A stretch of DNA of 32,000 bases from Planctomycetales bacterium (GCA_022646745.1 CP060262.1:810001-842000); one strand, 5' to 3'; numbered from the stretch's first letter, positions 6,341-32,000 are shown. The notes: generated by a model not told the origin, from the letters alone. Program-made: numbers and translations.

Positions 6341-6380
6341 AACACAGTCTCACAGTGGGGGATTTGGGGCCAGGGGAATA

Positions 6381-7519: not shown

Positions 7520-7551
7520 AAAGCGATCCCGGCAAGTAGTACTCTCTATCC

Positions 7552-13697: not shown

Positions 13698-13738
13698 CCA
13701 TGTACAATCCTCGCGGCATGGGCATGAGGAGTGGCAAC

Positions 13739-14266
13739 ATGGAAGAGCTGCAGTATCCGATCGGCAAGTACCGCATCGAGCATGAGTTCACAGCAGAGCG
13801 GCGCGCGGAGCTGGTTGGGCAGCTTGCCAGCCTGCCGCAGCAGCTGCGTGAAGCTGTCAACGGACTGGATGATGGACTGCTGGGCACGCCTTACCGGCCC
13901 GAGGGCTGGACGCTGAGGCAGGTGGTGCACCATGTGGCGGACAGCCATATGAATGCCTATGTGCGCATGCGCCTGGCGCTGACCGAGGAGGAACCGGCAA
14001 TTGCGCCTTACAAGGAAGGCCACTGGGCGATGCTGCCGGATGCGCAGCAGGCACCGCTCGGGTTGTCACTTTCCCTGCTGGACGGCCTGCATGGCCGCTG
14101 GGTGCTGTTGCTGGAAAGCATGACGGATGAGCAGTTCGCGCGGCGCTTCTTCCATCCGCAGTACGGCACACGGGTGCGCCAGGACGAAATCCTCTCGCAC
14201 TACGCCTGGCACGGCCGGCACCATACGGCGCATGTGACGGGCCTGCGGGAACGGATGGGCTGGTAG
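13739..14266 (+). CDS. yfiT: YfiT/DinB-family metal-dependent hydrolase or thiol S-transferase-like protein
   Basis: MEELQYPIGKY...TPYRPEGWTLRQVVHHVADSHMNAYVRMRLALTEEEPAIAPY...HGRW...YAWHGRHHTAHVTGLRERMGW is collinear with B. subtilis YfiT, including the His triad. I chose the start at 13739 because GAGGAG lies 7 nt upstream. The track ORF begins at 13661. Confidence 0.85.
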   Translation: MEELQYPIGKYRIEHEFTAERRAELVGQLASLPQQLREAVNGLDDGLLGTPYRPEGWTLRQVVHHVADSHMNAYVRMRLALTEEEPAIAPYKEGHWAMLPDAQQAPLGLSLSLLDGLHGRWVLLLESMTDEQFARRFFHPQYGTRVRQDEILSHYAWHGRHHTAHVTGLRERMGW

Positions 14267-14942: not shown

Positions 14943-15031
14943 AGACTGCAGACATCTGACACCAGACTTCAGATGTATTGTCGGAGTACCATGATATCTC
15001 TCTGAGGTCTGTAGTCTGTCTTCTGAGGTCT
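14943..15031. repeat. Palindromic AGAC-heptad element, copy R
   Basis: Plus-strand array AGACTGC AGACATC TGACACC AGACTTC AGATGTA (14943-14977), then a 19-nt spacer. Minus-strand array AGACCTC AGAAGAC AGACTAC AGACCTC AGAGAGA (14997-15031). The sub-order AGACCTC-AGAAnnC-AGACTAC is shared with copy L. Confidence 0.85.
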
Positions 15032-15061
15032 AGACCGACGGCAGATTGCCGCCGGTACAAT
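15031..15061 (+). promoter_or_regulatory. Candidate promoter of the VOC gene, possibly giving a leaderless mRNA
   Basis: TACAAT at 15056-15061 lies 6 nt before the ATG at 15068, with no Shine-Dalgarno between them. The -35-like TAGACC (15031-15036) overlaps the last AGAC heptad. The spacer is 19 nt, which is longer than optimal. Confidence 0.3.
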
Positions 15062-15067
15062 GTCCCC

Positions 15068-15457
15068 ATGAGAATCGCATTGACAAGCGTCATGGTTGAT
15101 GACCAGCAGAAGGCGCTGGACTTCTACACGGAAAAGCTCGGCTTCGTGAAGATCAACGACCACCCCATGGGCGAACACCGCTGGATTACAGTGGCTGGCC
15201 CCGACGGTCCCGAGGGTGTTGAACTGCTGCTGGAGCCGAATGCCGACCCGGACGCACGGATCTTCCAGGCTGCCATGAAGGACAAGGGCAAACCCTGGAC
15301 CAGTTTTGAGGTGGATGACGTGAAAGCCGAGGTGGAACGCCTGCGCGCCCTCGGCGTGGTCATCACCAAGGAACCCGTCGAGGAGCAGTGGGGCGGATAC
15401 GCTATGTTCGATGACACATGCGGCAACATCATCAGCATCCATTCCGTGGCCGGCTGA
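15068..15457 (+). CDS. VOC/glyoxalase-fold family protein
   Basis: MRIALTSVMVDDQQKALDFYTEKLGFVK...WITV...LLLEP...FEVDDVKAEVERLRALGV...GGYAMFDDTCGNIISIHS is a typical single-domain VOC protein. I chose the internal ATG at 15068, because the track ORF start at 14978 would read through the repeat element. Confidence 0.8.
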   Translation: MRIALTSVMVDDQQKALDFYTEKLGFVKINDHPMGEHRWITVAGPDGPEGVELLLEPNADPDARIFQAAMKDKGKPWTSFEVDDVKAEVERLRALGVVITKEPVEEQWGGYAMFDDTCGNIISIHSVAG

Positions 15458-15519: not shown

Positions 15520-16494
15520 ATGCGTTACAGAAGACTGGGATCCGCCGGCATCCAGGTATCCGAGCTGAGCTTCGGCTCATGGGTCACCTTCGGGCAGCAG
15601 TACGGCGTGGATGAGGCGCTGGCCTGCATGGAGGCCGCTTACGAAGCCGGCGTGAACTTCTTTGACAACGCCGAGGCCTACGCCGGTGGCAAGAGCGAAA
15701 CCCTGATGGGTGAGGCCATCAGGAAGGCCGGCTGGAACCGCGCGGACCTCGTTGTCTCCACCAAGATCTTCTTCGGCGGCCAGGGCCCGAACCAGAAGGG
15801 CCTGTCCCGCAAGCATGTGATTGACGGCATGCGCGCCTCTCTGGACCGCATGCAGCTGGACTACGTGGACCTCGTGTTCTGCCACCGACCCGACCCGAAC
15901 ACGCCGATGCTCGAGACCGTGCGCGCGATGAGCTGGGTGGTGGACCAGGGCTGGGCGCATTACTGGGGCACCAGTGAGTGGAGCGCCGAGCAGATCCGCC
16001 ACGCGCATGGCATCGCCGAGCGTGAGCACCTCAACCGCCCACAGATGGAGCAGCCGCAGTACAACATGTTCCACCGCGAGCGCGTCGAGAAGGAGTACGC
16101 GCCGCTGTACGAGGACATCGGGCTTGGCACCACGATCTGGTCACCACTGGCCAGCGGGATGCTGACCGGCAAGTACAACGAGGGCATCCCGGAGGGCAGC
16201 CGCGCGACGCTGCCGAACTACAAGTTCATCCGCGAGGGCATCGAAAGCGACGAGGGCCAGGCCCGCATCGATAAGGTCAAGCAGCTGATGCCGATCGCCG
16301 GCGAACTCGGCTGCAGCATCGCGCAACTGGCACTGGCCTGGTGCCTGAAGTTTGACGGCGTGAGCACGGTGATCACCGGTGCCTCCAGGGCCGAGCAGGT
16401 GTCTGAGAACATGGGCGCGCTGGACGTCGTTGACAAGCTAGACGAGAGCGTGATGGAGCGCATCGAGGCCATACTTGGCAACCGGCCTGTGTAG
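15520..16494 (+). CDS. Aldo/keto reductase (Kv-beta-subunit-like AKR family)
   Basis: [25 protein letters not shown]...[15 protein letters not shown]...VVSTKIF...[12 protein letters not shown]...WGTSEW...QPQYNM...[22 protein letters not shown] 8 nt upstream. Confidence 0.9.
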
Positions 16495-16503
16495 GCGGGA
16501 CGT

Positions 16504-19205
16504 TCAACGCAGTCGCCACATCAGTTTGTCAATGCCCTCCGCATAGTCCGGCATTTTTGCATCGCGTTCATGCAGCAGGACCAGGCAGTCGTCCGCTCCG
16601 TCCTGCAGGCAGTCCAGCAGCAGCTCGGTCATGTCCAGCCCCGGCAGGTAGCTGCGCTTGATGCGCGCCTGCTCCTGCGAGTAGTCATCCAGACTTGGGT
16701 CAGCCCGCAGGAACATGCGCCGGTCATCCAGCAGGCGCCTGAGGATGTCAGCCCGGTCCTGCATGGGGCATTGCCCGGCCGCCTCCACCAGCTCCCGTGG
16801 ATAGGCCTCCTCGATCAGCCGCTCAAATGTCGCCAGGTCCATGCCGGGTACATTCACTGCCGGTGACAATGGATTGTCCGGCTGGATCGTCGGGTTGACA
16901 GCCACGCGATTGTCACGGTCCATCCCGTTGTTGTTGCGCCGGACTGGATCAGCGCCGCTGTCCAGCAGCATGCGCATGCATTCGACATCGTCCATGAACG
17001 TATCGTGGTACAGCAGGTAGGTGAATGTGAAGGGATACTGCCTGCGGCTGTAATAGGTGTTGGCATGCGCGCCATGCTCCAGCATCAATGACAGCATATC
17101 GCGCAGGCTTGCCAGTTCCGCAGTGTCCTTCACCCTGCCGAAGCTGTCCGCCAGTCTGCCCACAGGGCAGCTGCCGACGTAGGCCGCATATTCCTCATCG
17201 TACTCAAGCCCGTAGTTCGGGTCGGCCCCGCCATCCAGCAGCAGCTCCAGCATGTCAACATTGCGCTGCTCGAATGCGAAGTCCATCGGCTGCTGCATGT
17301 ACATCTCCTGGCCATAGATCGCATCCATGTCCCACCAGCAGGCTGCACCGGCATCCAGCAGGATGGCAACGTGCTCGCGCTGCCCTCCAGCACCCCGTGG
17401 TAGAGCGTGATGTACATCCGGTAGTCTTCGATGCTCGCTCGCTGCACCTGATCCGCCAGCAGCATGCGCAGCACCTCCGGATCGGGTTGGTCCATTGCGG
17501 TATAGATCGCATCCGGCAGGCGCTCACGCGGTTCGTATTCGTACTCCCCGCTTGCCAGCAAACTGGCCAGCAACTCAAGGTCACCGAGCGCAATCACCGC
17601 CTGCAGCGGCGGTCGCTCCATTGCCAGCAGTTCTTCGCGCAAGCCCTCACGGCCCGCACTGGCAGCGAGGTACAGGCCGAAGCTGCGCAGGTAGCCAGTT
17701 TCCTTCTCATCCAGTCCTGCGCAGGCTGCTTCAAACTGTGGCCACAGCCCGAGGGCGGCACAACTTGCCGCATCAGGTTCCACTCCCATCGTGAGCAATT
17801 GCCTGGCCAGGCCCAGCCGGCCCCAGCGCAGCACTCGCTGCAAGGGTGTATCGCCTCCTCCATTGGCAAGCAGCGGATCGGCACCGAGCTGCACCAGCCT
17901 GACGAAGTCCGCCTCATAGCTGCTGGAGTCCGGCCTCAGGTACATCAGTGCGTTGTTACCGAGGCTGTCCGTGTAATTGCAGTCTATCCCGAGACTGCTG
18001 AACAGATCGTAGATGCCAATCTCACCCACACGGCTGCATTCGGCCACCAGCTCATGCAGTGTGGTGATCTCTGCAGGGTAGGATGGATGCGACGCTACCT
18101 TTCGCAGGTCCTGCAGGTCCAGACCGTTGGCAAGCATTACTTCAAACAGTTCCCGCAGGCGTGGTGCGGCATCCTCGCCCGCCAGGTCCGGGAAATCCAT
18201 GTAGCTGGACTGGTAAGCCAGCGTGAACAGGTCGTAGTATTGCGCATCCGAAAGGGCCTGCAGGTCCAGACCGTTGTCAATAAGCTGCTGCAGCAGGGAG
18301 GGGTCCAGCAGGCATACCGGCAGCAACCTGTCCTCCGGCATCGCCCCGAGGCCCGTAAGCGGGATTTCCGCAATGTCCCTTCCGCGGTCCAGCATGGCCT
18401 GGCGCTCGCTTGCATCCTGCATGTTTGCCAGTGCAAGGAAGGCATGGATCCACAGGCGGTCGACATGCATCCCGTTGGCAAGCAGTGGGCGCAGCCTGTC
18501 CATCTCCGTTTCATCCAGCCCATCCTCCGCCAGTGCCAGCACAAAGGTACTGCGCAACTGCGCACCATGTTCCAGCAGGGCATCAGTTGTCATTGGCAAC
18601 TCTGAGGAAGCCGCCAGGTACAGCAGGCTGTCAAGGTCGCGCTGGGTCAGCCCTGCCTCAAGCATACTCCTGTGCAGCAGCTCCATTGACAACTCATCGT
18701 AACCCAGCCGGATGGCAATCGGCAGCAGGGCCAGCCCACCATGCAGCTCGAGGACGTCCAACCCCTGCTCATTGCACAATGCAATTGCAGCCTGCTCGTC
18801 AACAAGCGCTGTCTGCAGCACCCTGATCCAGTCCCGCTCCGGGGCATCCGCCTTCCCGCACCAGCCGGCAAACATGTCCTCGATGGCAAGCCAGTTCCCT
18901 GTATCCGCTTTGTACATCCCTGTGACTGATCCAGCGGGAAAGAATGTGTTCAGGCAGCTTCCAGGCGGTTCAATGCCAAACAGTACACAGGCTGGCGGCT
19001 CCTCTCCATAGCCATCATCAAGCCAGTAATTCGGGCCATCGTCGTTGGTAACGTATTTAATTCCGGGCGTGGCAAACGCCGGTCCCTGGACCTGTATCAA
19101 CAGCAGTGCAGCAATCAGACCAAGCATGCGCAGCATCACCCGCAGATCATAGCGCCGTGCTGCATATGCCGCCACTCGCTCAGTCAAGCTCATCCACCAT
19201 TGCAT
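16504..19205 (-). pseudogene. Ankyrin-repeat exported protein, paralogue 6 of the array, split by a 1-nt frameshift near 17383-17388
   Basis: The 691-aa ORF (17130-19205) holds the N-terminal part and the 274-aa ORF (16504-17328) the C-terminal part, each collinear with the matching part of its intact neighbours. Shifting -1 after CTG GAG GGC gives YHGVLEG-QREHVAILLDAGA, a perfect ANK repeat. Likely start at 19136 (MLRMLGLIAALLLIQVQGPAFA) or 19193. Confidence 0.75.
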
Positions 19206-21675
19206 TCAGGCAGTCGCGATAGCCCGGCAGGGCAAAGCCCAGCCGCAGCATGCTGTCAATGCAGGCCCGTGAGCGCTGCACGAAGGCCTCACGGTATAGC
19301 CGCGCCGTGCTTGCTGAATCCGGCGTGTTGGCGGACTGGCTGGCCAGCAGCTCCAGCTGCGCCGCATTGTCACGCCTGATGCAGCCGAGCATCGCATTCA
19401 GCATCTCATCCGGGTTCTGCTCCGGCAGGAACAGCAGCAGGTGCCGGTCCTCCACGTCCGGCAGGTTGGCAACGAGCGGCAGCAACCCGCGAGCGACAGG
19501 CGGCTGCATCGGCTGCCCCGGGACCAGCGTGCCGGCATCGAGGTCCAGCCCGGCTTCCAGCAACAGGTCAAGCACTTCCGCTGATGGCTGCAGCCCGACC
19601 CGCTCAATCAGGGGGACGTATGTGCCGCCGCCTCTATAAGGATTGCTGTCAAGGTAGTAATCCGCGCGCAGGCCATGCTCAACCAGCAGGCGCAGCATTT
19701 CCAATTCCTTTCCGGCGCGCTGGTCCCTGCTATTCGCTCCGGCGCGCGGCAGGCAATACTCAAGCAGGCGGCCGCCCGTCCAGATGCCGAGCTGCTGGTC
19801 GTAGCTGAGCTGGTCGTTCGGGTCAAAGCCGGCGTCGAGCATCAGGCGCAGCATGTCAACCCGGCCCCGGCTGATTGCCATCCCGAGCGACTGCGCCTGC
19901 CGTCCCGCTCCAGGCTGGCAGTCATCCAGCCCGCTGTCCAGCAGTGCCTTCAGCACTGCCGGGTCCTCGTTGTAGCTGGCCGCTTCCAGCAGATCATGGA
20001 ACTGCTCATCCGTCACCGCCGCGCGGATGGCATCATCCGCCAGCAGTGCCTGCAGGCAGTCCAAGCGCTTTGCACCGGTTGCCAGCCTGAGCGGTTCATA
20101 GTCCGGCAGCGGCCAGATGCTGTACTCACCGTTCTCCAGCCGCAGCGCAAGTTCCTCAGGCATGTCAGCGAGGATCAGCGCCTGCAGCGGGGGTTCGTCG
20201 CCAAGCTCCAGCAGCTGCCTGAGAATGTCCTGGCTGTCAGCGGAGCCGGCGAGGATCATCGCGATGTCTGCCTGCCTGATGCGCTCACCGGGCAGCATGT
20301 CCGCCAGCGCCTGACTGTACTCCTCAATCCGCCCGATCGCTCCAAGGCTGGCGGCGTCCGGCTGCTCCACATGTTCGAGCATGAGCTGCCAGAGCTCCGG
20401 CCGCTGATTGATGATTGCCAGGTGCAATGGGCTGAAGCCCTGCTTGTCCGCCTGCAGCGGGTCCATCCCCGCATCCAGTAGCGACTCAATCGATTCCGCC
20501 GTATTCCAGGGGAACCAGCTCACTCCATGCAGCGCCGTGTAGCCGCGCTCATCAGCGAGCAGTGGATCTATCCCCAGCTCCGGCAGCACGCTGGCCAGCC
20601 GCGGGTCAAGTGCCGCCAGCCAGGCGATCTCCGCCGGCTTGCGCACAGCGGGATTGTCCAGGCTGGCTTCCTCCGCCTTGAACCCTGCCTTGGCCAGCAC
20701 AGCCGCACAGCCCGCCAGGTCCGGCGCCTGTTCAGACTCGCTGTTGCCAATAGGCCACATCATCGCAGCCTGCCAGAACATAGCTATCGAATTGGGGCTG
20801 TCCGGCTGCCTGAGCGCTTCGGCATAGCCCCTCTCCATCAGCAATTGCAGCTTGCGCGAGTCATCCATGCAGCCCAGCAGGATGTCATTGCTGAACATTG
20901 CCCGTCCCTGGAAGTAATCGCCATCTTCCAGCAGCGCTGCCAGTTCGTCATGGTCCAGTAGCGGCAGAAATTCGGCAATAGCCTTCTCCCAGCCTCCCTT
21001 GCTGTTGGACAGTCCACACTGCGTTGCCAGGAAATGGTAGAACTCCCGGCGTTCAGCGCTATCCAGGTCAAGCTGAGCACCGATCGTGTATGAATCCAGC
21101 CCGGCTCCGCTGTCCGCCAGGGTCAGAGCCATGATCCGGTCGCCGTAGCGGGCCGCGATCCCGAGCAGCTCATCCATTTCCCGGGTCCCGATTTCGTTCC
21201 GGCGCTCCATCCGTGGCAGCAGGCCGGCCAGCAGCTCCGTGTTGCCATACATCGCGCACATTGACAACAGCTGCATCGCATGCCCACGTTCACAGACTGC
21301 ATCAGGGTTCTCGTCGAACAGGGTCAGCGCGGCCTGCGGGTCAGTCTGGCTCAGCTGCAGTACGGTCAGCCAGGCCCGCTCATCCGGGTCGACAGGCGGG
21401 ATGGTCAGCGCCAGCAGCTGCTCCATCTCGAGGAACTCCGCGATGTCAGGCCGCTCCTCAAAGGCCGGCTCCTGCTCATCCTCAGCAGTGCTGCCAGCCA
21501 CACTTGTCACAGCCCCTGCCTGATTGACGATGATGCCAGCGTGTGTAGCAGCTGTCCTGTTGCAGGAAGCGCAGCACAGAAGGACAGTGAACATTAGCAA
21601 ACCGGAAAGGCTTGCCACCAAAGCCCCTATGCCGCCTGTCCGCACCAGACTGCTGCTATGTCCCTGCCTGTTCAT
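19180..21675 (-). CDS. Ankyrin-repeat exported protein (probable lipoprotein), paralogue 5
   Basis: 831 aa. N-terminus ...LLMFTVLLCCASCNRT. ANK motifs include GYTALHGVS...LLDAGMDPLQADKQGFSPLHLAIINQRPELWQLMLEH. The ATG overlaps the upstream stop (TGATG at 21673-21677). Confidence 0.85.
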   Translation of the reverse strand: MNRQGHSSSLVRTGGIGALVASLSGLLMFTVLLCCASCNRTAATHAGIIVNQAGAVTSVAGSTAEDEQEPAFEERPDIAEFLEMEQLLALTIPPVDPDERAWLTVLQLSQTDPQAALTLFDENPDAVCERGHAMQLLSMCAMYGNTELLAGLLPRMERRNEIGTREMDELLGIAARYGDRIMALTLADSGAGLDSYTIGAQLDLDSAERREFYHFLATQCGLSNSKGGWEKAIAEFLPLLDHDELAALLEDGDYFQGRAMFSNDILLGCMDDSRKLQLLMERGYAEALRQPDSPNSIAMFWQAAMMWPIGNSESEQAPDLAGCAAVLAKAGFKAEEASLDNPAVRKPAEIAWLAALDPRLASVLPELGIDPLLADERGYTALHGVSWFPWNTAESIESLLDAGMDPLQADKQGFSPLHLAIINQRPELWQLMLEHVEQPDAASLGAIGRIEEYSQALADMLPGERIRQADIAMILAGSADSQDILRQLLELGDEPPLQALILADMPEELALRLENGEYSIWPLPDYEPLRLATGAKRLDCLQALLADDAIRAAVTDEQFHDLLEAASYNEDPAVLKALLDSGLDDCQPGAGRQAQSLGMAISRGRVDMLRLMLDAGFDPNDQLSYDQQLGIWTGGRLLEYCLPRAGANSRDQRAGKELEMLRLLVEHGLRADYYLDSNPYRGGGTYVPLIERVGLQPSAEVLDLLLEAGLDLDAGTLVPGQPMQPPVARGLLPLVANLPDVEDRHLLLFLPEQNPDEMLNAMLGCIRRDNAAQLELLASQSANTPDSASTARLYREAFVQRSRACIDSMLRLGFALPGYRDCLNAMVDELD

Positions 21676-24203
21676 CAGCGCAGCCGTTGCAGCATCTGGT
21701 TCAATGCCGTGTTGTAGTCAGGCAGGGCGAAGTCCCGGTTGAGCAGCAGGTCCAGTGCTTCAAGGTCACCCGCTGCGAAGCATTCAGCCATCAGTAGCTT
21801 CTGGTCGGCATCCGACAGCGGCGCATCCAGCCAGGCCAGCAGTTCCGGCAGGAATTCCGTGTTGCCAGACATGATGCAGTTGCGCATTGCCGCCTTGAGG
21901 TCATCATCAAGGGCATGACGCGCGAACTGGCTAAACAGGTCGGGGTCCATCCCTTCAATTGTGGATAAGTTGGTTAACACTTGATTGAACAGTGAACTAG
22001 CAACGATGAATTGTCCTGTTACCCCCGGCGGCAGTCCAGCTGTTGTGCTCTGCTTACCAGCAGCCGGCGGCGGCGGCATCTGTCCTGGGTCCAGGCCATG
22101 GTCCAGCAGCAAGTGCAGGGTGTCAGCATCCAGCGTGCGGCACAGGTCCCACAGCGGTGGCTGGGGAGCCTGTCCCATCATGCTCGTTGCCAGGAAATCC
22201 AGCCGTGCCCCCTCATCCAGCAGCCGCTTGTAAATCCGCCGGTTCAGGTCGTAGTCAAGCACTTCCGGTGTTCCTTTCAGGTGCATGATCGGTGGATCTC
22301 CTGTCAGGGTTCCAGTGGCCGGATCGAGTACCAGCCCGACATTCGGATCAGCACCGAACTCAAACAGCAGCTTAATCATCTCCTCATCCCGGAATGAAAC
22401 CGCCATACACAGCAGCGGCGTGCCCCTGCGCATCATTTCATCCTCGGGTGCAACCGGGATGCCCGCTTCCAGCATGATCCGCAGGCGCTGGGGCTTCCTT
22501 TCCGAAACCGACCTGAACATCGTATAGGCAAAGTAGTCCATGTCCGCCCTGGCCATGTATGTCTCACTATCCAGCAGGGCCTTCAGCATGTCGTCATTTT
22601 CATCAAACTGTTCCTGGTAGAACAGGTAGCCGAAGGTCTCGCCATCTTCAGTGTAGTTCTCCCGCGCCAGCGCATCCCGCAGCAGTTCCGCATCGCCATT
22701 GATCACGAGGCTGCACAGGTCCGGCACGAATCCGCTGTCATACAGCTCCCGGAAGCGCTCGTGGTCCGCCCCTGCCGCCAGGTGCAGGCCGCGTTTGATC
22801 TCCAGTCCGCGATTGACAATCACCTGCTCGCCGGCCGCCTGCTTGAATTGCTCCACTGTGCCAAGCACCGCCAGCGTTGCCAGGTCCGGTTCGCGCTCGC
22901 CCAGCAGCTCCCGTGCCAGCTCGATGTCCCCGTTGACCAGTGCGAAGTGCACCGCGCTGAAGCCATCATCACCTTCCAGCAGCGGGTCCAGCCCGGCGGC
23001 GACGAAGTCCCGTGCTAGCTGCGCCGTGTACTTTTCCTCCTCCTGATAGTGCAGCAGACCCAGCAGTATGGTCTGCCCGCGGCTGTCAAGGCGATTCGGG
23101 TCCACGCCGTGCTCCGCCAGCAGCTCTATCAGCTCCGCCGGCGGAGGCTGCCTGAGGAAGCCGACATCCGCCACCAGCGACCAGTCATCCGGCAGGCTGT
23201 CCAGCGATATGCCGCGCTCATCCAGCAGCTTGAAAAGCCCGACCACATCACCCCAGTCCGTTTCATTGCTTGAGTTGTAAATCTTCTCGCGCTCCTTCAG
23301 CAGCTTGCCAAACAGCTCCCCCTGATCCGTGTAGCGCACTTCCTCCAGGTCCAGCCCGTCGGCCAGCAGCAGCTCCAGCTTGTGGCTGTCATCCATGCAG
23401 CCCTTGACGAGATCATAGGTCTGGCGGTTGCCGGCGTAGCGCAGGTCCGCATCATTCATCGCCTCCGTCCCGCGCAGCTCCCGGCAGCGCTCAATCTGGT
23501 CAGCAAGCTGCTCAGCATCCATCTGCGGCAGTGTGTTGGCAAGCACCGCGCACCAGTCCTGCGCCGTGTCCGAGATCACGTCCTGCTCCAGCACGAATGC
23601 CAATAGATCCGGGTCCGGCTCGTTGCCAATACCGAGATTGCGGAACAGGTAGCCCGCCGACATCGAGATGCGCGCGCCATTCCCGGCCAGCAGCTCAATC
23701 ATCTCCGCATCGCCATGCCCGATCGCGGTGGTCAGCAGTTCATTCATGTCCGCCTGCGTCATCACATCCGCAGCGGCATGCTGCTCCAGCAGGTAGCGGC
23801 AAAGTTCAGCCTTGCCGAACATAACCGACAGGCGCAGCAGGCCGAATCCCGGCAGGGCCTCGCTGGCCGGATCGACCCGCCCGGATTCAAGCAGCGCAAT
23901 CGCTGCCTGTTCATCATCCGCAGCGATTGACAGCACTTCGGCCCAGCCTCGCTCGAATTCACCACTCGGTGGAGACAGCGCGAACAGGTGGGCCTCACTC
24001 TCCATGAAGGGCTGCAGCTCTGGCGCCGGCTGGATCAGCTGGAAGGCCTTGAAGTAGTCCTCACGCTTGATGGTCTTGCCACTACCGGCAGCCCCGCCCT
24101 GGGCGGCACCTCCTGTACCCTTGCCAGTACTGCCCCTGTTGCATGCACACAGCAGAAGCATAGCAAGTATGCCAATCCCGAGCCTTGTCAGCTTTCGACT
24201 CAT
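21675..24203 (-). CDS. Ankyrin-repeat exported protein (probable lipoprotein), paralogue 4
   Basis: I chose the start at 24203 (MSRKLTRLGIGILAMLLLCACNRGS, with GGAAGGAA RBS) rather than the track start at 24356, which overlaps the upstream gene. ANK motifs include GQTILLGLL...FVAAGLDPLLEGDDGFSAVHFALVNGDIELARELL. Confidence 0.85.
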   Translation of the reverse strand: MSRKLTRLGIGILAMLLLCACNRGSTGKGTGGAAQGGAAGSGKTIKREDYFKAFQLIQPAPELQPFMESEAHLFALSPPSGEFERGWAEVLSIAADDEQAAIALLESGRVDPASEALPGFGLLRLSVMFGKAELCRYLLEQHAAADVMTQADMNELLTTAIGHGDAEMIELLAGNGARISMSAGYLFRNLGIGNEPDPDLLAFVLEQDVISDTAQDWCAVLANTLPQMDAEQLADQIERCRELRGTEAMNDADLRYAGNRQTYDLVKGCMDDSHKLELLLADGLDLEEVRYTDQGELFGKLLKEREKIYNSSNETDWGDVVGLFKLLDERGISLDSLPDDWSLVADVGFLRQPPPAELIELLAEHGVDPNRLDSRGQTILLGLLHYQEEEKYTAQLARDFVAAGLDPLLEGDDGFSAVHFALVNGDIELARELLGEREPDLATLAVLGTVEQFKQAAGEQVIVNRGLEIKRGLHLAAGADHERFRELYDSGFVPDLCSLVINGDAELLRDALARENYTEDGETFGYLFYQEQFDENDDMLKALLDSETYMARADMDYFAYTMFRSVSERKPQRLRIMLEAGIPVAPEDEMMRRGTPLLCMAVSFRDEEMIKLLFEFGADPNVGLVLDPATGTLTGDPPIMHLKGTPEVLDYDLNRRIYKRLLDEGARLDFLATSMMGQAPQPPLWDLCRTLDADTLHLLLDHGLDPGQMPPPPAAGKQSTTAGLPPGVTGQFIVASSLFNQVLTNLSTIEGMDPDLFSQFARHALDDDLKAAMRNCIMSGNTEFLPELLAWLDAPLSDADQKLLMAECFAAGDLEALDLLLNRDFALPDYNTALNQMLQRLR

Positions 24204-24267
24204 TTCCTTCCCCCGCGGATGTCCTGTTACACCATATAGCTTACAGACTGCCTGGCCTGGCTGCCGT

Positions 24268-26748
24268 TCAACGCTGCTGTGGCTCAAGCCCGTAGCCCAG
24301 CGCATCCAGCCCGACGCGGTAATCCGGTACGGGATAGCCCAGCACCAGCAGGGCATCGAGGCAGGCCCTGGCCCTGTGCCTGAATGCTTCAGTCACCAGA
24401 CCTGCATCCTGCTGCCTCGATCCGGCCGGCAAGGCACTGTCCAGCCTTGCCAGCAGGTCGGCATTGTCAACAACCAGGCACTGATACATTGCCAGTTCGA
24501 TCTGCTGCTCCGTGGCAACCTGCAGCGCTGCCTCCTGTAGCTCCCCGTCGACCCCCTGCATCCCGGCCAGCTGCACGATCAGCGCCGGGGGATACTGCCA
24601 GTCCGTGTTGCCCGGCTTGCCGCGCACCGGTGCTGCCATTGGCTCCCTTGCATGCTCTGCCAACAATTCCACCAGATCCGGATCAAGCCGCTTTGCGTTG
24701 TACTGCAGGCTGGGAATGTAATCCACCACTCCGGTTATCGGGTTCATGCTTTCCACGTAGTAGTCAACATTGGCATCATGCTCCAGCAGCAACTCGACAC
24801 ATCGCCGGACTTCTTCCATGTCAATCCGCTGCGAGTACGGGACCGTCTCGCTCATCAGCAGGTCCAGGCAGGATTGCAGGGCCGGCTTGCCTGACAATAT
24901 GCCATGCGCCTGTATCTCGATCAGGCCCCGGTCCGGGTCGGCACCATGCTCCAGCATCAGCCCCAGCAGTTCCGGCTCACCCAGCTGGGCCGCTGCCTGC
25001 ACCAGGCTGCGCACAAGCCCCGTATAGCCATCAGGGATTTCCACCGGTGCACCGTTGTCAAGCAATACCGCTGCGTTGTCAAGCCTCTGGTTCTGCACAG
25101 CCCTGACCAGTGCATCAAACAGTGACAGCGGGTTGTAGTCCCGCTGCAGGTTCTTCGCCTGCAGCATCGCGGCCAGGCAATCAGGGTCGCCATGCGCTGC
25201 GGCATACTGCAGTGGCCGCAGGTTTTCACCCGGCATCACGCTGAACTCGCCACTCTCCAGCCGCTGCTCCAGCTCCGCAAGCATGCCGGCGCGGCACAGG
25301 GCCTGCAGGGGAATCGCCGTGCCCTGCTCCTCCAGCGCGAGTACCACCTGCCTGTCCCCCAGTGATGCCGCCAGCAGCATCGCTCGCTGCACTGCCAGTT
25401 CGCGATCCGCCCGGTCCAGCTCCTCGAGCAGGCTGGCAAAGTTGTCCACTTGCCCGAAGGCCCCCGCCGTGACGATGTCCTCCCTGCCGCAGGCGCTGTA
25501 CATTGCTTCAGCCAGTTCGCGCCGGTCATCATCGATTGCCATGTAAAGCGGCGTATAGCCATTGTCGTTGGCCAGCAGCGGGTCCATTCCCAGCTCCACC
25601 AGCGCGACAATCTCCGCATCGGAATAGTCATCGCGCTCCAGCAGGTGGAACAGCGCATTGCGGCCCAGGTTGTCAGTCCGGTTCAGGTCCACGCCCCATT
25701 CCGCCAGCAGAGGATAGAGCCGCTTGTCATATGACGGCCAGCTGACAATCACGTCCATTAGTGTGAATCCAGGTGCGTTGCTGGGAGACACGAACTTATC
25801 ATCCTCGGCCATGATGTCCTGCCCGTTGTCAGCAAGGATCCGGAACACACCGGATTCGTCAGACACATCCCGCCCGATGAACTTCGCCTGGCCGAAACGG
25901 GTGGCCGTGAGATGCACCTGCTGGAACAGGCTGCCACCCCTCGCCGGGTCGGTATCAGGCAGTGTGTAGCCGCTGTCCAGCAGCAGCTGCAGCTTGCGTG
26001 ACTCATCCAGGCAGCCGGTGACCAGTGCAGTCGGATCCGACATAAGCTGATCGAAATGGGTTTCCCCCGCCAGCACCGCCTGCAGGCTCTCATAAGTCAT
26101 ATATGGCAGCATTTCGGCCAGCTTTGACAACCAGTTGCCATTCTCATCGCTGATCCCGCAGGCCTGCACCGCCTCCTGCAGCAACTGCTTGTCGCGCGGT
26201 GCGAATGTCCCCATCAGGCCCTGCTGCGCCTCATAGCTCAGCGTGGCCCCGTGGCCGGCCAGCATCCGCATCATCTCGCGGTCGCCATGCCGCAGTGCGG
26301 CGGCCAGCAGGCTGCCCTTGTCAGCCGGGCCGAGCTGCCCGCTCTCCTCCACACTGGCCAGCGCGACATCCGCCAGCTCCACATAGCCGAAGCTGACCGC
26401 CGCCCTGAGCAGGTCCACCTCATGTCCGGTCCGGCTGATTGATTCGCGCCGTGTTGCCAGTTCCTCGACAGCCGCCGCCTGGTCCTCACTCGCCAGCTCG
26501 ATCAGTGCCAGCCAGTCGCGCTCGGCCTCCTGCTTCGGTGGCGAAATCGATGCGAGGATCGCCTCCATTTCGAGGAAGTCCTCCGGCGAGGCGTGCGGCT
26601 CGAAGGCCGGCTGCGCATCTTCCCCGGCAGCATTGCCAGTCCCGCCAGTTGAAACCTGCAGTCCAGTTCCGCTTCCACTGCTTCCGCCGGAATTGCATCC
26701 CGCCAGCAGCAGCACAATCAATCCTGCCAGTATTTCCTGTGTCCTCAT
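24268..26748 (-). CDS. Ankyrin-repeat lipoprotein, paralogue 3
   Basis: 826 aa. Canonical lipobox LLLAGC followed by a G/S/T-rich tether. ANK motifs include GRNALFHLL...LVELGMDPLLANDNGYTPLYMAI and PLQYAAAHGDPDCLAAML. AGGAAAG RBS. Confidence 0.9.
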   Translation of the reverse strand: MRTQEILAGLIVLLLAGCNSGGSSGSGTGLQVSTGGTGNAAGEDAQPAFEPHASPEDFLEMEAILASISPPKQEAERDWLALIELASEDQAAAVEELATRRESISRTGHEVDLLRAAVSFGYVELADVALASVEESGQLGPADKGSLLAAALRHGDREMMRMLAGHGATLSYEAQQGLMGTFAPRDKQLLQEAVQACGISDENGNWLSKLAEMLPYMTYESLQAVLAGETHFDQLMSDPTALVTGCLDESRKLQLLLDSGYTLPDTDPARGGSLFQQVHLTATRFGQAKFIGRDVSDESGVFRILADNGQDIMAEDDKFVSPSNAPGFTLMDVIVSWPSYDKRLYPLLAEWGVDLNRTDNLGRNALFHLLERDDYSDAEIVALVELGMDPLLANDNGYTPLYMAIDDDRRELAEAMYSACGREDIVTAGAFGQVDNFASLLEELDRADRELAVQRAMLLAASLGDRQVVLALEEQGTAIPLQALCRAGMLAELEQRLESGEFSVMPGENLRPLQYAAAHGDPDCLAAMLQAKNLQRDYNPLSLFDALVRAVQNQRLDNAAVLLDNGAPVEIPDGYTGLVRSLVQAAAQLGEPELLGLMLEHGADPDRGLIEIQAHGILSGKPALQSCLDLLMSETVPYSQRIDMEEVRRCVELLLEHDANVDYYVESMNPITGVVDYIPSLQYNAKRLDPDLVELLAEHAREPMAAPVRGKPGNTDWQYPPALIVQLAGMQGVDGELQEAALQVATEQQIELAMYQCLVVDNADLLARLDSALPAGSRQQDAGLVTEAFRHRARACLDALLVLGYPVPDYRVGLDALGYGLEPQQR

Positions 26749-26770
26749 ATTGCTTTCCTGGCGAACAGCC

Positions 26771-29254
26771 TCAGTAGATCAGTTCATAGCTCCTGAAAGC
26801 CCCGAGCCGGCCCAGCAGTGCCTCCTCGTAGGATGGCAGTGGAAACATCAGTTCCAGCGCCTGTTCCATGCAACGCGGCGCATCCTGCGCCAGGCAGGCA
26901 TTGACAACCTCCTTGCCATCGTCGGCCGTGATCCGACGACCAAGCCTCGCGTTCAGCACTGCCAGCAGGCCAGCGTTGTCAGTTTCCGCACAGGCCGCCA
27001 TAGCCATGACCAGGTCCCCGTATTCCGCCCCGGGCAGGAACTGCTCAAGTATCGCCTGGTCCAGCCCCGGGATCTCCAGCAGCTGCGCCAGCAGGCCCGG
27101 CATGCGAAACGGCAAGGGCCTGCTGGACAGCTCGCCACCGATCGTGCGAGCCTGCGGGTTGGCACCGTACTCCAGCATCAGCTGCAGCATCGGCAGGTTC
27201 TTTTCGTAGATCACCTGCAGCAGGACCGGCGCATACTCCTCCCTGCCCCCGTATCCACGGTCAGTGTAGAAATCCGGGTTGGCACCCGCCTCCAGCAGCA
27301 TGCGCATGCGGCCGAGCTGCACCGCCGGGCCGTCCGGCATGTCGTCAAAGTAATAGTGCGATGTCACCCTGTCCAGCGCTGGCTCGCCGACCATGATGTC
27401 ATGTTGCTGGTTGTGCACCAGACCGTAGTCCGGGTCCGCGCCCCATTCCAGCAGCCACTGCAGCATCTCCGGGCTGTCCCGCGTGGCGGCAGTTCCCAGC
27501 AGCGGACTGTCAAAATCCTCCAGCCCACCGGGTTTCTCGATCTGTGCACCAGCATCAATCAATGCCTTGGCAACATCATTCATTTCAACCATCAGTGCAA
27601 GGTCCAGCATGCGGTACAGGTCGTCATCGTCCAGCCCGCTGCGGATCCGCTCATCCGCCAGCAGGCTTGCCACCGCCTGCGGACGCTCGGCATGCATTGC
27701 CAGCCGCACCGGATGCTCGAACTCCACTCCGGGAGGCAGGTAATCACCACTGGCCAGGTGGGCCTGCAGTTCCGCGGCCAGCTCCGGCAGGAACAGCGCC
27801 GGAAGCGTTGGACTGTAGCCCATTGCCAGGATCGCCCGTACCGTCGCCGCATCCTCACGCTTCGCCGCAATCTCCATTGCCAGCGCGGCGGCCGCCGCAG
27901 CCTCCTGCGGACCAAGCCCCGCCAGCCCCTCACTGAACTGCCCAAGCTCTCCCAGCCCGCCCTGCGCCGCCGGATCGGGCACGGTCGCAAGTGCCAGCAA
28001 TGCCTGTCCCAGTTCCTCCCGTCCGGCCAGCAGGGCCAGGTCCGCCGGAGTGCGGCCCTCCTTGTCACGCAGGTCGGGGTCGAGCCCCAGTGCCACCAGC
28101 TGCCGCACATCTTCCGCCGTGCCGTAGTCGCGGAAGCTGAGCGCATGCAGCGCATTACGGCCTTCCTCGTCAACACTGTCCAGCGCTACGCCCCACTCGG
28201 CCAGCAGCGCATACATCGACAGGTCGGGGGAAGGGTAGGTCACGACGTAGTCCAGCGCACTCATGCCCTCGCTGTCTTCCCCGGCCGGCAGTGCGGCCAG
28301 CTCGTGGATGTCGAATCCCATCGTTGCCAGGATGCGCATCAGGCCCGCCTCGTCCTTCACCTGCACGTCATTGTCCTCGGCATAGCGGTACTGTATTGCC
28401 AGCGAGTGCAGCGCCTGCATCGGGTGCTCCCCGTCCCTGCCAATCAATGGTGCCAGCCTGTAGCCGTGTTCCACCAGCAGGGCGAACTTCGCTGAATCAT
28501 CCAGGCAGGCATTCAGCAGGGATGTCCCCTTGTCCGGCTCGGAGGCCAGGGTGCCGCTGCGTTCCAGCAGGGCCAGCAGTTCCGTTTCGTCGACAAACGG
28601 CATAATGCGGGCGATCGTTGAACCGGTGCTCTGGTTGCTCTCTGCCAGCGCAGCGCTGCCAGCCAACTGTCCCAGCAGTTCGGCCCGCGGCCCCTCCAGT
28701 CCCCGGCCGGCCAGGAAGCTCAGGCAGTCATCCTCCAGCCTGGCTCCGGCTGCTGCCAGCACCAGAGCCATGTCCACGTCCCCGACGCTGACCGCCCTTG
28801 TCAGCAGGTTGTCCAGCTCAAGCTGCTGAGGGAATCCCTGCCCGGACAACTGCTCGATGTATGCCTGCGCCAGTTCGCCGAAGCCGAACTCAACCGCGAA
28901 GGCCAGCAGCGAGTAATCCTGGCAGTTGCGGCTGTGCTCAAAACCGCTGAATAGCGAAGGTTCCTCCGGCGGGGGTGCCGGCAGGGAGAGCAGCATCGCG
29001 ATCGCGGCCTGCTCATCCCTTGCCGCCTGTTCCAGTACAGCCACCCAGTCGCGGGCATGTGCATCCTCCGGCGGGCTCTGTGCCGCCAGCATTGCCTCCG
29101 CCGCCAGGAATTCCTCCAGCACGGGCTGCGGCAGCCAGACCATTGAATCATCAGGCCACTGTGCCTGCGCTGCCTTTGTAGCCGTGAGCATTGCCAACAG
29201 GCATACTGTTGCCAGCATGCCGGTTCCCTGCCCCTGAGCTAAACCTGTCCGCAT
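26771..29254 (-). CDS. Ankyrin-repeat secreted protein (SPase I-type signal), paralogue 2
   Basis: I chose the start at 29254 (MRTGLAQGQGTGMLATVCLLAMLTATKAAQA), with GGGGGGAGG ending 6 nt upstream. The track ORF starts at a GTG at 29317. ANK motifs include GRNALHALS...LVALGLDPDLRDKEGRTPADLALLAGREELGQALL. Confidence 0.85.
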   Translation of the reverse strand: MRTGLAQGQGTGMLATVCLLAMLTATKAAQAQWPDDSMVWLPQPVLEEFLAAEAMLAAQSPPEDAHARDWVAVLEQAARDEQAAIAMLLSLPAPPPEEPSLFSGFEHSRNCQDYSLLAFAVEFGFGELAQAYIEQLSGQGFPQQLELDNLLTRAVSVGDVDMALVLAAAGARLEDDCLSFLAGRGLEGPRAELLGQLAGSAALAESNQSTGSTIARIMPFVDETELLALLERSGTLASEPDKGTSLLNACLDDSAKFALLVEHGYRLAPLIGRDGEHPMQALHSLAIQYRYAEDNDVQVKDEAGLMRILATMGFDIHELAALPAGEDSEGMSALDYVVTYPSPDLSMYALLAEWGVALDSVDEEGRNALHALSFRDYGTAEDVRQLVALGLDPDLRDKEGRTPADLALLAGREELGQALLALATVPDPAAQGGLGELGQFSEGLAGLGPQEAAAAAALAMEIAAKREDAATVRAILAMGYSPTLPALFLPELAAELQAHLASGDYLPPGVEFEHPVRLAMHAERPQAVASLLADERIRSGLDDDDLYRMLDLALMVEMNDVAKALIDAGAQIEKPGGLEDFDSPLLGTAATRDSPEMLQWLLEWGADPDYGLVHNQQHDIMVGEPALDRVTSHYYFDDMPDGPAVQLGRMRMLLEAGANPDFYTDRGYGGREEYAPVLLQVIYEKNLPMLQLMLEYGANPQARTIGGELSSRPLPFRMPGLLAQLLEIPGLDQAILEQFLPGAEYGDLVMAMAACAETDNAGLLAVLNARLGRRITADDGKEVVNACLAQDAPRCMEQALELMFPLPSYEEALLGRLGAFRSYELIY

Positions 29255-29337
29255 ATGCATCCTCCCCCCGCAGCGCATTCCACTGGCCCTGTCAGCCAGT
29301 GCAGCGGCCGCAGTCACTGTTTCCAGTCTATCAGCAT

Positions 29338-31917
29338 TCAGAACATTGACGGGAACTGCAATGCTGCCCCGGCGGCCAGCGCCGACACCAGCTCGTCCCC
29401 TTCGGGCAGGTCATATCCCGCATCAATCATCATTTCCACCGCTGTCGGCTGCATGTACATCACCGCCTGCAGCAGCATCTGCTGCTGAGCTTCCACAGCC
29501 GGCATCGCGTCAAGGTTCCCGAGCAGCAAAGGGAAGAGGTCCATGCGCTGCTGCCCAAGGCAGGCTTCCACGCCCATCAGCAGTTCATCGTCAGGCATCC
29601 GCTCGAAATACTCCCTTGCGGTTTCCGTATCCAGCTGGTCCATCCGGCAGAGGTTGGCAGCGAGGCTTACATACCATGAGAAATAGGCAGGCTCCTCCAG
29701 GGTATTGATCACCCCCTGCGATGGGTCAGCACCGATCTCAAGCATTGCCTTCATCACTTCCGGGTCGCCTCCGAAACTGACAATGTTCAGCAGCGGCAGG
29801 TAGTCAGCCCTCAGGCGGTCCTCTCCATAGGCGATGTAGTAATCCGCACGTGCGCCATACTCGGCCAGCAGTCTGATCACGCCCGTGCGGCTGATCTCCA
29901 CTCCATCCACCGGGTCGTCGTCGTCACCGAAGCACCATGCGTTCATCGGGCCGAGCCCGACCGTGATTTCGTACTCCTCAATCTCCTCCAGGCCACGGTT
30001 CGGATCCACTCCATGTTCCAGCAGGATCCGCACCCCGTCCATCCAGCCCAGCTGCACCGCCCGGTTGAGCGGGTCATGCTCCATCGTGCGGCCGTCATAA
30101 GGCGCGCTTGCCCTGGCACCATGTCCAAGCAGCAGCTCAAGCTGGCCTGCTCCATAGCTGTTCACCGCGACCAGCACGGCAGCGGCGAGGTCGGCCTCCG
30201 TCAGCCAGCGTGAGTACGGCTCAAAGTCCAGGAGCGTTGCCAATATGTCAGCTTCATGCTGGCGCACCGCCAGCTCCAGGCTGTGACCCAGCCCACTGCT
30301 TCCCTGCACGACATAATTGCCGGCTTCCAGCTGTCTGGCGAGGTAATCCGGGCTTCCGCAACTGATCAGCGTTTCGAGCGGTATGCCCCAACCCATTGCC
30401 GACAGTTCATTCAGCGTCGCCAGCTTGCCGGCCTGGCTCGCCGCCAGCATGCACCTGCGTACCATCGCATCCTGTTCCTGCCCTGACAACACAGACAGTC
30501 CGGCGATGCAGTCCTCCGTGTTGCCGAGCATCGCCAGCACAGGCAGGTCAGTAAGCCCTGAATCCCCTAGCAGGAGCGTTGCCAGCTCCCTGCGGCCAGC
30601 CTGCAGTGCGAGGCTGACTGCAGTCTGCCCCTCTTCGTCCCGCTGCAGCGGATCTGCTCCGAGTTCAACCAGCGCCAGCAGCGCTGCATCCGGTACCTGA
30701 GCACGTGCGCCGAGCATCCGGTGCAGGATGTTGCCACCATTGCGCATCTCGCCGTTTAGCGTCCCGGCCAGCTCCAGGATGTAGCGGTAGAATGCCAGTG
30801 TGCCCTGCGGGTCGTTCTCCCAGTCCGCCAGCTTGGGCCCATAGGCGGTCATTGCCCGGTCTGCCGAGCGGTATCCCGGTGCCCGATCCGGCCGTTCCAC
30901 GGCCCTTGCCGCCGCGTGCATGTCCAGCCCCTGCTTTTCAAACTGCCTGAACAGCTCCAGCAGTGCTGCCCTGCGCCAGTCACCTTCCACATAGGTCGCC
31001 GCGTGCAAAACCGTATCCGCCAGTGGATCAAAGTCCATCTCACGGCAGTACTGCTGAAGGTCCATTCCGTGTTCCACCAGCAGCTCCAGTTTCGCCGGAT
31101 CGCCGATGCACATCGGGGGCAGGAAGTAATAATTGTCATAATCACCGTCAAGCGCAAATGGCAGGTCCCGCGGGCAGATTTCATCTAGCTCCTCAATGCT
31201 CAGTTCCTGCAGCAGCACACTGAGGCAGTCCATCCATTCGCCACCGTCCTCGCGCAGGCCGCAGCTGCGCAGTGCTGCCATCATGAATCCGTGATCAATC
31301 CTCCCCTCGTGCAGCTCATGCAGCAGGGTCTCGCAGCTGGTCCTGCCGAGCTTTGCACCATGCTCGCCAAACAGCTCAATGATGCCTGCCTGCCCCTCCC
31401 GGATCGCCCGCTGCAGCAGCATGTCCATCACCTGCCTGACTTCCTCGTCGGAAGCACTGCCCTTGCCATCCGGGAACCCTTCCATGGAAATGAACCGGTC
31501 GGCCAGCTCGGGGCAGCCGCAGGGTATCGCATTGAGCAGGACGTCCATTGCCAGCACAGGCAATTCCGCACCTTGCTCAATCTCCGGCATGGCCGCAATT
31601 GCCGCCGCCTCATCCGTCTGCATCAGCCGCAGCACCTCCAGCCAGCCGGCATTCGAAGCGTCCATCTCAAACCCCGCGCTTTCCAGCAGTGCGAGGGTCT
31701 CCAATGCCTGCGGGATCCGGCTGCCCTCTCCGTAGGCATAGCTGTCCAGTGCCATTCCCATCATGAAATCCTGGCTCCATTTCAGAGCGGTTTCATCAGT
31801 CAGATGGGAAACAGCGCCTGAATCCAATTCTTCCCCGGCCTGCGCCAGCACATTGCCGGACTGCAGCAGCAGGCAGCCGGATGCGGCCAGCAGCGCCACG
31901 ATCAGCTTCCAGTTCAT
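29338..31917 (-). CDS. Ankyrin-repeat secreted protein, paralogue 1 (first gene of the array)
   Basis: 859 aa. Signal peptide MNWKLIVALLAASGCLLLQSGNVLAQA. ANK motifs include GNILHRML...LVELGADPLQRDEEGQTAVSLALQAGRRELATLLL. It shares conserved blocks with the other five genes. Confidence 0.85.
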   Translation of the reverse strand: MNWKLIVALLAASGCLLLQSGNVLAQAGEELDSGAVSHLTDETALKWSQDFMMGMALDSYAYGEGSRIPQALETLALLESAGFEMDASNAGWLEVLRLMQTDEAAAIAAMPEIEQGAELPVLAMDVLLNAIPCGCPELADRFISMEGFPDGKGSASDEEVRQVMDMLLQRAIREGQAGIIELFGEHGAKLGRTSCETLLHELHEGRIDHGFMMAALRSCGLREDGGEWMDCLSVLLQELSIEELDEICPRDLPFALDGDYDNYYFLPPMCIGDPAKLELLVEHGMDLQQYCREMDFDPLADTVLHAATYVEGDWRRAALLELFRQFEKQGLDMHAAARAVERPDRAPGYRSADRAMTAYGPKLADWENDPQGTLAFYRYILELAGTLNGEMRNGGNILHRMLGARAQVPDAALLALVELGADPLQRDEEGQTAVSLALQAGRRELATLLLGDSGLTDLPVLAMLGNTEDCIAGLSVLSGQEQDAMVRRCMLAASQAGKLATLNELSAMGWGIPLETLISCGSPDYLARQLEAGNYVVQGSSGLGHSLELAVRQHEADILATLLDFEPYSRWLTEADLAAAVLVAVNSYGAGQLELLLGHGARASAPYDGRTMEHDPLNRAVQLGWMDGVRILLEHGVDPNRGLEEIEEYEITVGLGPMNAWCFGDDDDPVDGVEISRTGVIRLLAEYGARADYYIAYGEDRLRADYLPLLNIVSFGGDPEVMKAMLEIGADPSQGVINTLEEPAYFSWYVSLAANLCRMDQLDTETAREYFERMPDDELLMGVEACLGQQRMDLFPLLLGNLDAMPAVEAQQQMLLQAVMYMQPTAVEMMIDAGYDLPEGDELVSALAAGAALQFPSMF

Positions 31918-32000
31918 GGACTGATCATAGCAAGTCGGAATTCAGATCCTGCTGTTTACGCCACCCTCAGCCCGGGTAATACATCTGGTTTGGCCCAGGC

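Follow-up and report, generated by a model that had tools for sequence, protein, structure and literature searches.

Why does an ordinary bacterial chromosome carry, in one unbroken row, six large genes for exported ankyrin-repeat (ANK) proteins, and what might the products do? The question is raised by a stretch of 32,000 nucleotides (nt) from a Planctomycetales bacterium (GCA_022646745.1 CP060262.1:810001-842000), referred to as a whole as the window. Half of it (16504-31917) is filled by a head-to-tail row of six consecutive minus-strand open reading frames (ORFs), here called A to F. Six minus-strand genes had been placed in this interval by an earlier note made from the DNA alone, and they were found exactly there as consecutive ORFs of 826-877 amino acids (aa). 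The reading preferred here, to which a probability of about one half is attached, is that A-F belong to a lineage-specific family of envelope-located, protein-binding scaffolds that evolves by birth and death and is diversified by recombination; the binding function is proposed from sequence. On present evidence this is no new type of system; it is a new, narrow family among exported bacterial ANK-repeat proteins. The most informative feature, which is absent from the earlier note, is the variability of the slot content between strains and lineages.

Related genomes were searched and syntenic slots were found with six, at least five, one and one copies. The borders of the slot are conserved at three levels of divergence, with PKD-domain genes and a divergent gene for a 155-aa protein upstream and a convergent aldo-keto reductase gene downstream. 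The window and locus L001, which both contain the six genes A-F, were used as the reference for these borders. In L006 (GCA_020440665.1) the 155-aa protein is 100% identical and the slot contains a copy 32% identical to A (A'), followed by B (97%), C (96%), D (84%) and E (86%); the fetched locus ends inside E, giving a content of at least five genes. The slot of L005 (isolate Ww346; 155-aa protein 67% and reductase 88% identical) holds a single D-type gene (65% identity) and that of L008 (JGI 3300061720; 55% and 87.5%) a single A-type gene, so that the two singletons belong to different types. An assembly artefact was also considered, and the same array was recovered in several independent assemblies (L001-L004, L006, L007 and L011).

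A second, single-copy locus of the family (proteins P0049 and P0061; L009 10001-15018 and L010 10001-14967) has another conserved context, in which a ~900-aa gene combining PKD, Peptidase_S15 and PepX_C domains follows the ANK gene after 48-105 nt. As the main slot is flanked by PKD proteins too, the adjacency of ANK and PKD genes is recurrent. The second locus adjoins MacB/FtsX and MscS genes as well.

The ages of the copies were examined by all-versus-all alignment, a phylogeny and the ratio of nonsynonymous to synonymous divergence (dN/dS) across the family, which together describe old paralogues under purifying selection. All pairs among A-F align end to end with 22-30% identity (BLASTP E 1e-16 to 1e-83), well outside what chance would give, and the motif blocks that had been described by eye as collinear in all six are present in the family consensus (ERDW..DEQAAIA, C.DDS.KL.LL, LL.E.G.D.N..D..G.NAL and GADPN.GL). 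DNA matches between paralogues are of motif size only (30-65 nt, 60-86% identity) and some of them recur at the gene period of ~2.5-2.6 kb. These matches confirm the head-to-tail register and exclude recent duplication, recent gene conversion between paralogues and repeat-driven mis-assembly.

In a neighbour-joining tree D grouped with D6 and the Ww346 copy (bootstrap 100), A with A' and the L008 copy (97), P0049 with P0061 (100) and B with C and E (94). By these clades the duplications are older than the lineage splits, with different copies kept in each lineage, a pattern of birth-and-death evolution. The six copies thus arose long ago through tandem duplication within one fixed slot of the chromosome and were retained differentially between lineages. 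The claim of an old and maintained family was borne out in both parts: age by the low identity between paralogues and the grouping of orthologues from other lineages with D or A, maintenance by between-strain dN/dS values of 0.16-0.44.

The recent history of the slot was read from near-identical strains. The window and L001 are identical over A-E (12.6 kb) and differ in F and the reductase, where synonymous divergence (dS) is 0.11-0.14, which indicates a sharp recombination or sweep boundary near the E/F junction. Between L001 and L006 the nucleotide sequences are 97% identical over the 155-aa gene; this match breaks off 77 nt into A, directly behind the signal peptide, and is taken up again where B begins. 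Position A of L006 (1010-3598) is thus occupied by the 32%-identical allele A' beside a 155-aa protein that is 100% identical, and the A'/B junction is repeated in the independent contigs L006, L007 and L011. Along B-E the sliding-window dS between L001 and L006 varies from 0 to above 1, with gene-wide dN/dS of 0.44 for B, 0.16 for C, 0.28 for D and 0.23 for E. The locus is thus a hotspot for the exchange of diverged alleles whose coding sequences are under purifying selection, and homologous recombination is still rearranging the array.

One copy is broken in this strain. The earlier note missed that F is frameshifted in the window, where it is split into an ORF of 687/691 aa (17130-19205) and one of 274 aa (16504-17328). 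An intact allele of 896/900 aa, ~5% diverged, is present in L001/L002 and is matched by the repaired frame of the window. Four independent contigs, each from a different sample (ERZ27309061, WANG18-1 SAMN08389169, SRR12358675 and SRR12358676; L014-L017), encode the same truncated 687-aa product, out-of-frame tail included, so the deletion is a real allele and a sequencing or assembly error was ruled out. Programmed -1 frameshifting was also ruled out, as there is no slippery heptamer and the related allele merely has an extra G. Between the two F alleles dN/dS is 0.26 at a dS of 0.11, and this purifying selection places the inactivation recently. F is a segregating, recent pseudogene inside the array.

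The ANK identity of the proteins was established by profile and structure searches. Against the Pfam Ank families all six gave significant matches. A-E pass the curated cut-offs for Ank_2, Ank_3, Ank_4 and Ank, with Ank_2 (cut-off 27.3 bits) scoring 39.5-59.2 bits. For F the two frameshift halves were scanned separately; the N-terminal one passes Ank_4 (28.2 against 22.7 bits), the C-terminal one both Ank_4 and Ank (30.3 against 21.1 bits for Ank). Structures were predicted with AlphaFold2 (AF2) for two of the six paralogues, C (predicted local distance difference test score, pLDDT, 81.3; predicted template modelling score, pTM, 0.71; residues 1-47 disordered) and A, the most divergent copy (pLDDT 79.8, pTM 0.68; residues 1-64 disordered). 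Both models are ankyrin solenoids forming a single unbroken stack of ~50 short helices plus a few beta-hairpins. The ANK-like repeats that had been noticed by eye were thereby upheld, and each protein is predicted from these models to be one continuous solenoid of roughly 22 ankyrin repeats.

The top Foldseek match of the A model was the 24-repeat ankyrin-1 (8cs9_A, E 2e-11) and those of the C model were 8cs9_A and 4rlv (24 ANK repeats, E about 3e-10); across both models the ankyrin-R/B matches (8cs9_A, 4rlv and 5y4d) had E values of 2e-11 to 5.5e-10. The next matches were designed multi-DARPins, NOMPC, TRPA1 and latrotoxins. When the family profile was run against PDB sequences nearly all matches were ANK proteins, natural and designed. 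Each protein contains 0-2 GxTPLH-like and 3-8 LLxxGADP-like motifs; with so few canonical TPLH motifs, the majority of the repeats are degenerate and can be recognised only in the structure. Along the family alignment, conservation peaks at the LLxxGADP-type motifs, which are structural elements of the ANK fold. A distinct conserved docking domain was considered and was not supported, the peaks being these same motifs.

Export signals were called by rule-based inspection of the N-termini, and the signal sequence that had been claimed for all six proteins was found in each as a Sec or lipobox motif. In C, D and E a hydrophobic h-region is followed by a lipobox-like sequence (LLAG|C-N, LLCA|C-N and CCAS|C-N, respectively, with the cores LAG|C-N, LCA|C-N and CAS|C-N), after which a Gly/Ser/Thr-rich tether follows in C and D. 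Signal peptidase I sites of the AXA type are present in A, B and F (VLA|QA, AQA|QW and AFA|TP, respectively). No other transmembrane-like segment was found in A-F. By these motifs A, B and F are predicted to carry Sec-type and C, D and E lipoprotein export signals. Orthologues keep such signals: P0004 has LAVAC, P0008 starts MNWKLIVALLAAL and P0049 starts MLLLSCVMVIIAAGNSLA. A-F are strongly acidic (isoelectric point, pI, about 4.3; net charge -66 to -84). Exported proteins encoded elsewhere in the window are similarly acidic, while its cytoplasmic proteins have a pI of about 5-6.

The distribution of the family was determined by an exhaustive profile search of 1.84 billion protein representatives. 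This gave 222,543 generic ANK matches, among which only about 10 representatives were full-length in a single stretch; these were the window's genes or near-identical strain variants together with a handful of relatives. P0004 is the D orthologue (65% identity), P0008 and P0033 are A-type (about 31%), and P0049 and P0061 form a separate clade with about 25% identity to all six. The context of P0165 was not syntenic with the slot. C is deposited as NCBI UNM09104.1, 'hypothetical protein KDL29_12525 [bacterium]'. The D orthologue was located in 'Planctomycetales bacterium isolate Ww346', and a query with D and P0004 found one GTDB genome. An identical copy of the aldo-keto reductase is deposited as '[Planctomycetales bacterium]'; the nearest reductase homologues are labelled only 'bacterium' or 'Planctomycetales bacterium', and remoter matches are phylogenetically mixed.

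Whether the family is already common or characterised was also checked: no family-level model in Pfam, NCBIfam or PADLOC fits, only short generic ANK stretches being matched, and full-length relatives are confined to a few related metagenome-assembled genomes (MAGs), some of them labelled Planctomycetales. Judged from these searches, the family is narrowly distributed in a small group of uncultured bacteria. Membership of a PADLOC defence system was ruled out, the only matches being stretches of 40-130 residues that resemble the ANK part of PDC-M72A, with scores of 25-54 bits.

The layout of the array is compatible with joint transcription. Gene spacing is 83 nt (or 20) for A-B, 22 for B-C, 64 for C-D, -1 for D-E and 43 (or an overlap) for E-F. 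Of the spacing given in the earlier note the TGATG stop/start overlap was confirmed, while its range of 0-64 nt is replaced by the measured -1 to 83 nt. The start codon of E overlaps the stop codon of D in this TGATG, coupling E translationally to D, and good Shine-Dalgarno sequences are present upstream of B (GGAGG) and D. No terminator-like site was found on the coding strand of the array; the sole such site is on the opposite strand. It is plausible, from the short gaps, the stop/start overlap and this lack of a coding-strand terminator, that A-F are one transcription unit. The only intergenic region upstream of A is the divergent one of ~106 nt (measured at L001 4725-4832), so the promoter of the array must lie there. 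No match to a sigma-70-like consensus was found anywhere in 16000-32000, a result that is uninformative for this lineage. Translation of the long plus-strand ORFs across the array (e.g. 17088-18605 and 26633-28495) gives low-complexity sequence, and these ORFs are most readily explained as antisense shadows in DNA of 62% G+C.

The statement in the earlier note that the array matches no recognised system was overstated, as bacterial ANK proteins bearing Sec signals are already known, namely RARP-1, the phage ANKs of sponge symbionts and the chromosomal ANKs of an uncultivated sponge gammaproteobacterium. These are the nearest in concept, and 24-repeat ankyrins are the nearest in structure. AnkB of Pseudomonas aeruginosa is a small periplasmic ANK protein whose gene lies beside that of a catalase (katB-ankB); no catalase gene was found in the window or flanks. 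RARP-1 of Rickettsia is a periplasmic Sec-exported ANK protein with endogenous envelope partners (10.1101/2022.02.23.481736). Exported ANK proteins need not be host effectors, since RARP-1 and AnkB stay periplasmic and bind endogenous envelope proteins. Both are single-copy, conserved and of few repeats, in contrast to the six-copy, strain-variable array of full-length solenoids described here, and searches of Pfam, NCBIfam and PDB sequences gave no specific match that would indicate orthology to either.

The 'Ankyphage' protein ANKp of sponge symbionts has an N-terminal signal peptide, no transmembrane domain and a gene of 568 nt, and ANKs of this type are read as exported binders that act on another organism by reducing phagocytosis (10.1101/608950). 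They and the sponge-symbiont ANKs resemble the present family in being bacterial or phage ANK proteins that are variable and enriched in their genomes. Unlike the short Ankyphage ANKs, the proteins here have ~830 aa and ~22 repeats and half of them look lipid-anchored; only generic ANK similarity was found between the two groups, and no host association is known for the present organism.

The ANK families of Legionella and Coxiella (Dot/Icm), Wolbachia, Rickettsiales and Orientia are likewise lineage-specific and often strain-variable expansions. Those intracellular effectors are translocated by type IV or type I secretion, normally lack Sec signals and are scattered or on mobile elements, whereas the present array is one collinear six-gene set of equal-length paralogues with no secretion-system genes nearby. 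Likeness to the Imm-ank polyimmunity loci (PMC3482391) is in layout only, in that both have tandem, diverged, strain-variable repeat-protein genes; here there is no adjacent toxin gene and the proteins are exported and ~830 aa long. Eukaryotic ankyrin-R/B (8cs9, 4rlv and 5y4d) share with the A and C models a single superhelical ANK solenoid of ~800 residues. The membrane-binding domain of ankyrin-R/B is a multi-partner, membrane-proximal scaffold, cytoplasmic and accompanied by spectrin-binding and death domains, whereas the bacterial proteins are exported, have no domain besides the solenoid and share only 13-16% identity with it. The geometry of the superhelix also differs, as global TM-scores are 0.23-0.34.

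If A-F are envelope scaffolds, the array would be transcribed as a single unit from the divergent promoter upstream of A and its products would be exported to the cell envelope. There a lipid at the N-terminus, followed by a flexible linker, would tether C, D and E to a membrane, and A, B and F would be soluble in the periplasm or released. The exported solenoids would have no enzymatic activity and would serve as scaffolds that bind proteins, with a different specificity for each paralogue. The replacement of cassettes and the change in copy number between strains point away from a fixed housekeeping client and towards partners that vary or come from outside, such as grazers, hosts, phage or competitors.

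Several observations weigh against this picture. No secretion system or obvious partner gene was found in the window or fetched flanks, and conservation lies mainly in generic ANK motifs, which give no clue to a common client. Export is apparently not universal in the family: in the A-type singleton of L008 (P0033; L008 10001-12415) in-frame stops lie just upstream of the ATG and there is no hydrophobic N-terminus. The signals are equally compatible with a surface and a periplasmic location. The gene-wide dN/dS below 1 is no direct sign of diversifying selection, and neutral recombination at a hotspot could account for the mosaic, as could MAG assemblies that are in part chimeric, although the A'/B junction recurs in three contigs. 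At least one copy is dispensable, given that F is inactivated in this strain.

A more ambitious form of the envelope-scaffold proposal, considered rather unlikely, is that the slot is a recombination-driven cassette repertoire of exported ANK binders, analogous in bacteria to variable gene arrays for receptors or antigens. Strains would then exchange entire paralogues as well as parts of genes, copies would be gained and lost (6, at least 5, 1 and 1) under frequency-dependent selection by grazers, phage and competitors, and lipid-anchored and soluble members would cooperate at the cell surface. The main rival, doubtful but the foremost of the alternatives, is that the proteins are housekeeping periplasmic scaffolds or chaperones holding endogenous envelope proteins, such as the neighbouring PKD proteins, with no role between organisms. 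PKD-domain genes flank the slot in every lineage, the PKD and S15-peptidase gene lies 48-105 nt past the single ANK gene at the second locus, and dN/dS is below 1; a periplasmic ANK protein with endogenous partners is moreover known in RARP-1 (10.1101/2022.02.23.481736). Such a role fits poorly with a change from six copies to one in the same slot, and equally poorly with a 32%-identical A' beside a 100%-identical neighbour and a segregating F frameshift, and the PKD adjacency may be chance because PKD proteins are common in these genomes. It is also improbable that the proteins are effectors acting in eukaryotic cells after Sec export and release, e.g. by blocking phagosome maturation. ANK proteins are typical eukaryote-like effectors and strain-variable repertoires are typical of effector families; signal-peptide phage ANKs of sponge symbionts reduce phagocytosis (10.1101/608950), and chromosomal ANKs of a sponge gammaproteobacterium modulate amoebal phagocytosis according to that paper's citation of Nguyen et al. 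2014. Set against this, no type III, IV or VI secretion system gene was found in the window or the 10-kb flanks of related loci, the NCBIfam T4SS_AnkY match reached 17 bits against a cut-off of 600, and three members look lipid-anchored and not released. The context is moreover the ordinary chromosome of a flagellated bacterium (FlgL, FliW), and the MAG sources were not identified as host-associated.

Very improbable is a polyimmunity array in which exported, diverged paralogues neutralise the periplasm-acting toxins of competitors, as orphan immunity clusters do. Tandem diverged paralogues, strain-variable content and mosaics do resemble immunity islands, and Imm-ank, which is listed in association with Tox-AHH for firmicutes, planctomycetes and gammaproteobacteria, is also recorded from heterogeneous polyimmunity loci (PMC3482391). 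In the four lineages, however, no toxin, Rhs, contact-dependent inhibition or type VI secretion gene lies in or beside the slot, PADLOC and NCBIfam give generic short ANK matches only, and at ~830 aa the proteins are several times as long as a typical immunity protein. Tox-AHH belongs to the HNH/EndoVII nucleases, and immunity against such a nuclease would be cytoplasmic, but the proteins here carry export signals. That the array is decaying or artefactual, i.e. non-functional duplicated DNA or a repeat mis-assembly, is essentially excluded. F is frameshifted in this strain and relatives have lost most copies; yet all the ORFs except F run uninterrupted over 2.5 kb each, dN/dS is 0.16-0.44, no long DNA repeats occur between paralogues and several independent assemblies recover the array.

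Most known exported ANK proteins of bacteria come from host-associated species, and what they do other than as effectors is poorly understood. The locus is a clean natural experiment, with fixed borders around one to six paralogues and with whole-gene allele replacement and a segregating frameshift among otherwise near-identical strains. Should the products be surface or periplasmic binders under frequency-dependent selection, it would offer a tractable model of how a binding repertoire is diversified in free-living bacteria labelled Planctomycetales, and as binders they would be a source of natural ANK scaffolds of ~22 repeats. Should they be housekeeping scaffolds, they would constitute an ordinary lineage-specific gene family.

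Table 1. Coordinates of the array and its borders. Positions are those of the window unless a locus is named; A-F are on the minus strand, with the gene starts chosen by gene callers in independent assemblies.
Feature	Coordinates	Strand	Details
Paralogue A	29338-31917	minus	859 aa; ORF; Pfam Ank_2 8e-10, Ank_3, Ank_4
Paralogue B	26771-29254	minus	827 aa from MRTGL, also by gene callers in other assemblies; ORF reaches GTG at 29317
Paralogue C	24268-26748	minus	826 aa; predicted ANK solenoid over residues ~55-820
Paralogue D	21675-24203	minus	842 aa from MSRKL; ORF reaches 24356
Paralogue E	19180-21675	minus	831 aa
Paralogue F	16504-19136 or 19205	minus	877-900 aa if repaired; split by 1-nt deletion
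F frameshift site	~17383-17385	minus	GGG in window, GGGG in intact allele (alignment with L001/L002)
Divergent intergenic region upstream of A	31918-32000 (in-window 83 nt of ~106 nt)	minus	Sole candidate promoter region
155-157-aa gene	L001 4258-4725 (just past window 32000); L005 9310-9786; L006 439-903; L008 9441-9905
Aldo-keto reductase	15520-16494	plus	Pfam Aldo_ket_red 4.6e-68; downstream border of slot, convergent

The divergent neighbour upstream of A, a protein of 155-157 aa with an N-terminal transmembrane anchor, is present beside the slot in every lineage examined and gave no Pfam or PADLOC match. A functional link between it and the ANK array is possible.

The remainder of the window contains several further features. 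A flagellar context lies at its left end (86-2317 and 5150-6189). FlgL is unusually long there (743 aa), FlgL models being matched only by its C-terminal ~115 residues, and the same stretch has a 184-aa ORF and a FliW-like ORF (5731-6189, by eye). The translation of the ORF at 6355-6588 is not CsrA-like; no other search for csrA was made. Just downstream of flgL, on the opposite strand, two adjacent minus-strand genes of 424 and 459 aa (2388-3662 and 3677-5056) each encode an N-terminal transmembrane anchor. They are diverged paralogues (23% identity, E 2e-11) with no match in Pfam or NCBIfam. A 1026-aa predicted lipoprotein (10183-13263, minus; LLNLAG|C) has two dockerin-like DxDxNGEVNISD motifs and a pI of 4.3, and likewise gave no Pfam or NCBIfam match. 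Between the flagellar genes and the slot are small detoxification-type genes (7001-7983, 13661-14266 and 14978-15457), comprising two DinB-like and two glyoxalase-like genes, and a P-type ATPase gene at 8145-10106. This neighbourhood is conserved, as L008 likewise has the reductase, glyoxalase, DinB and ATPase genes next to its slot.

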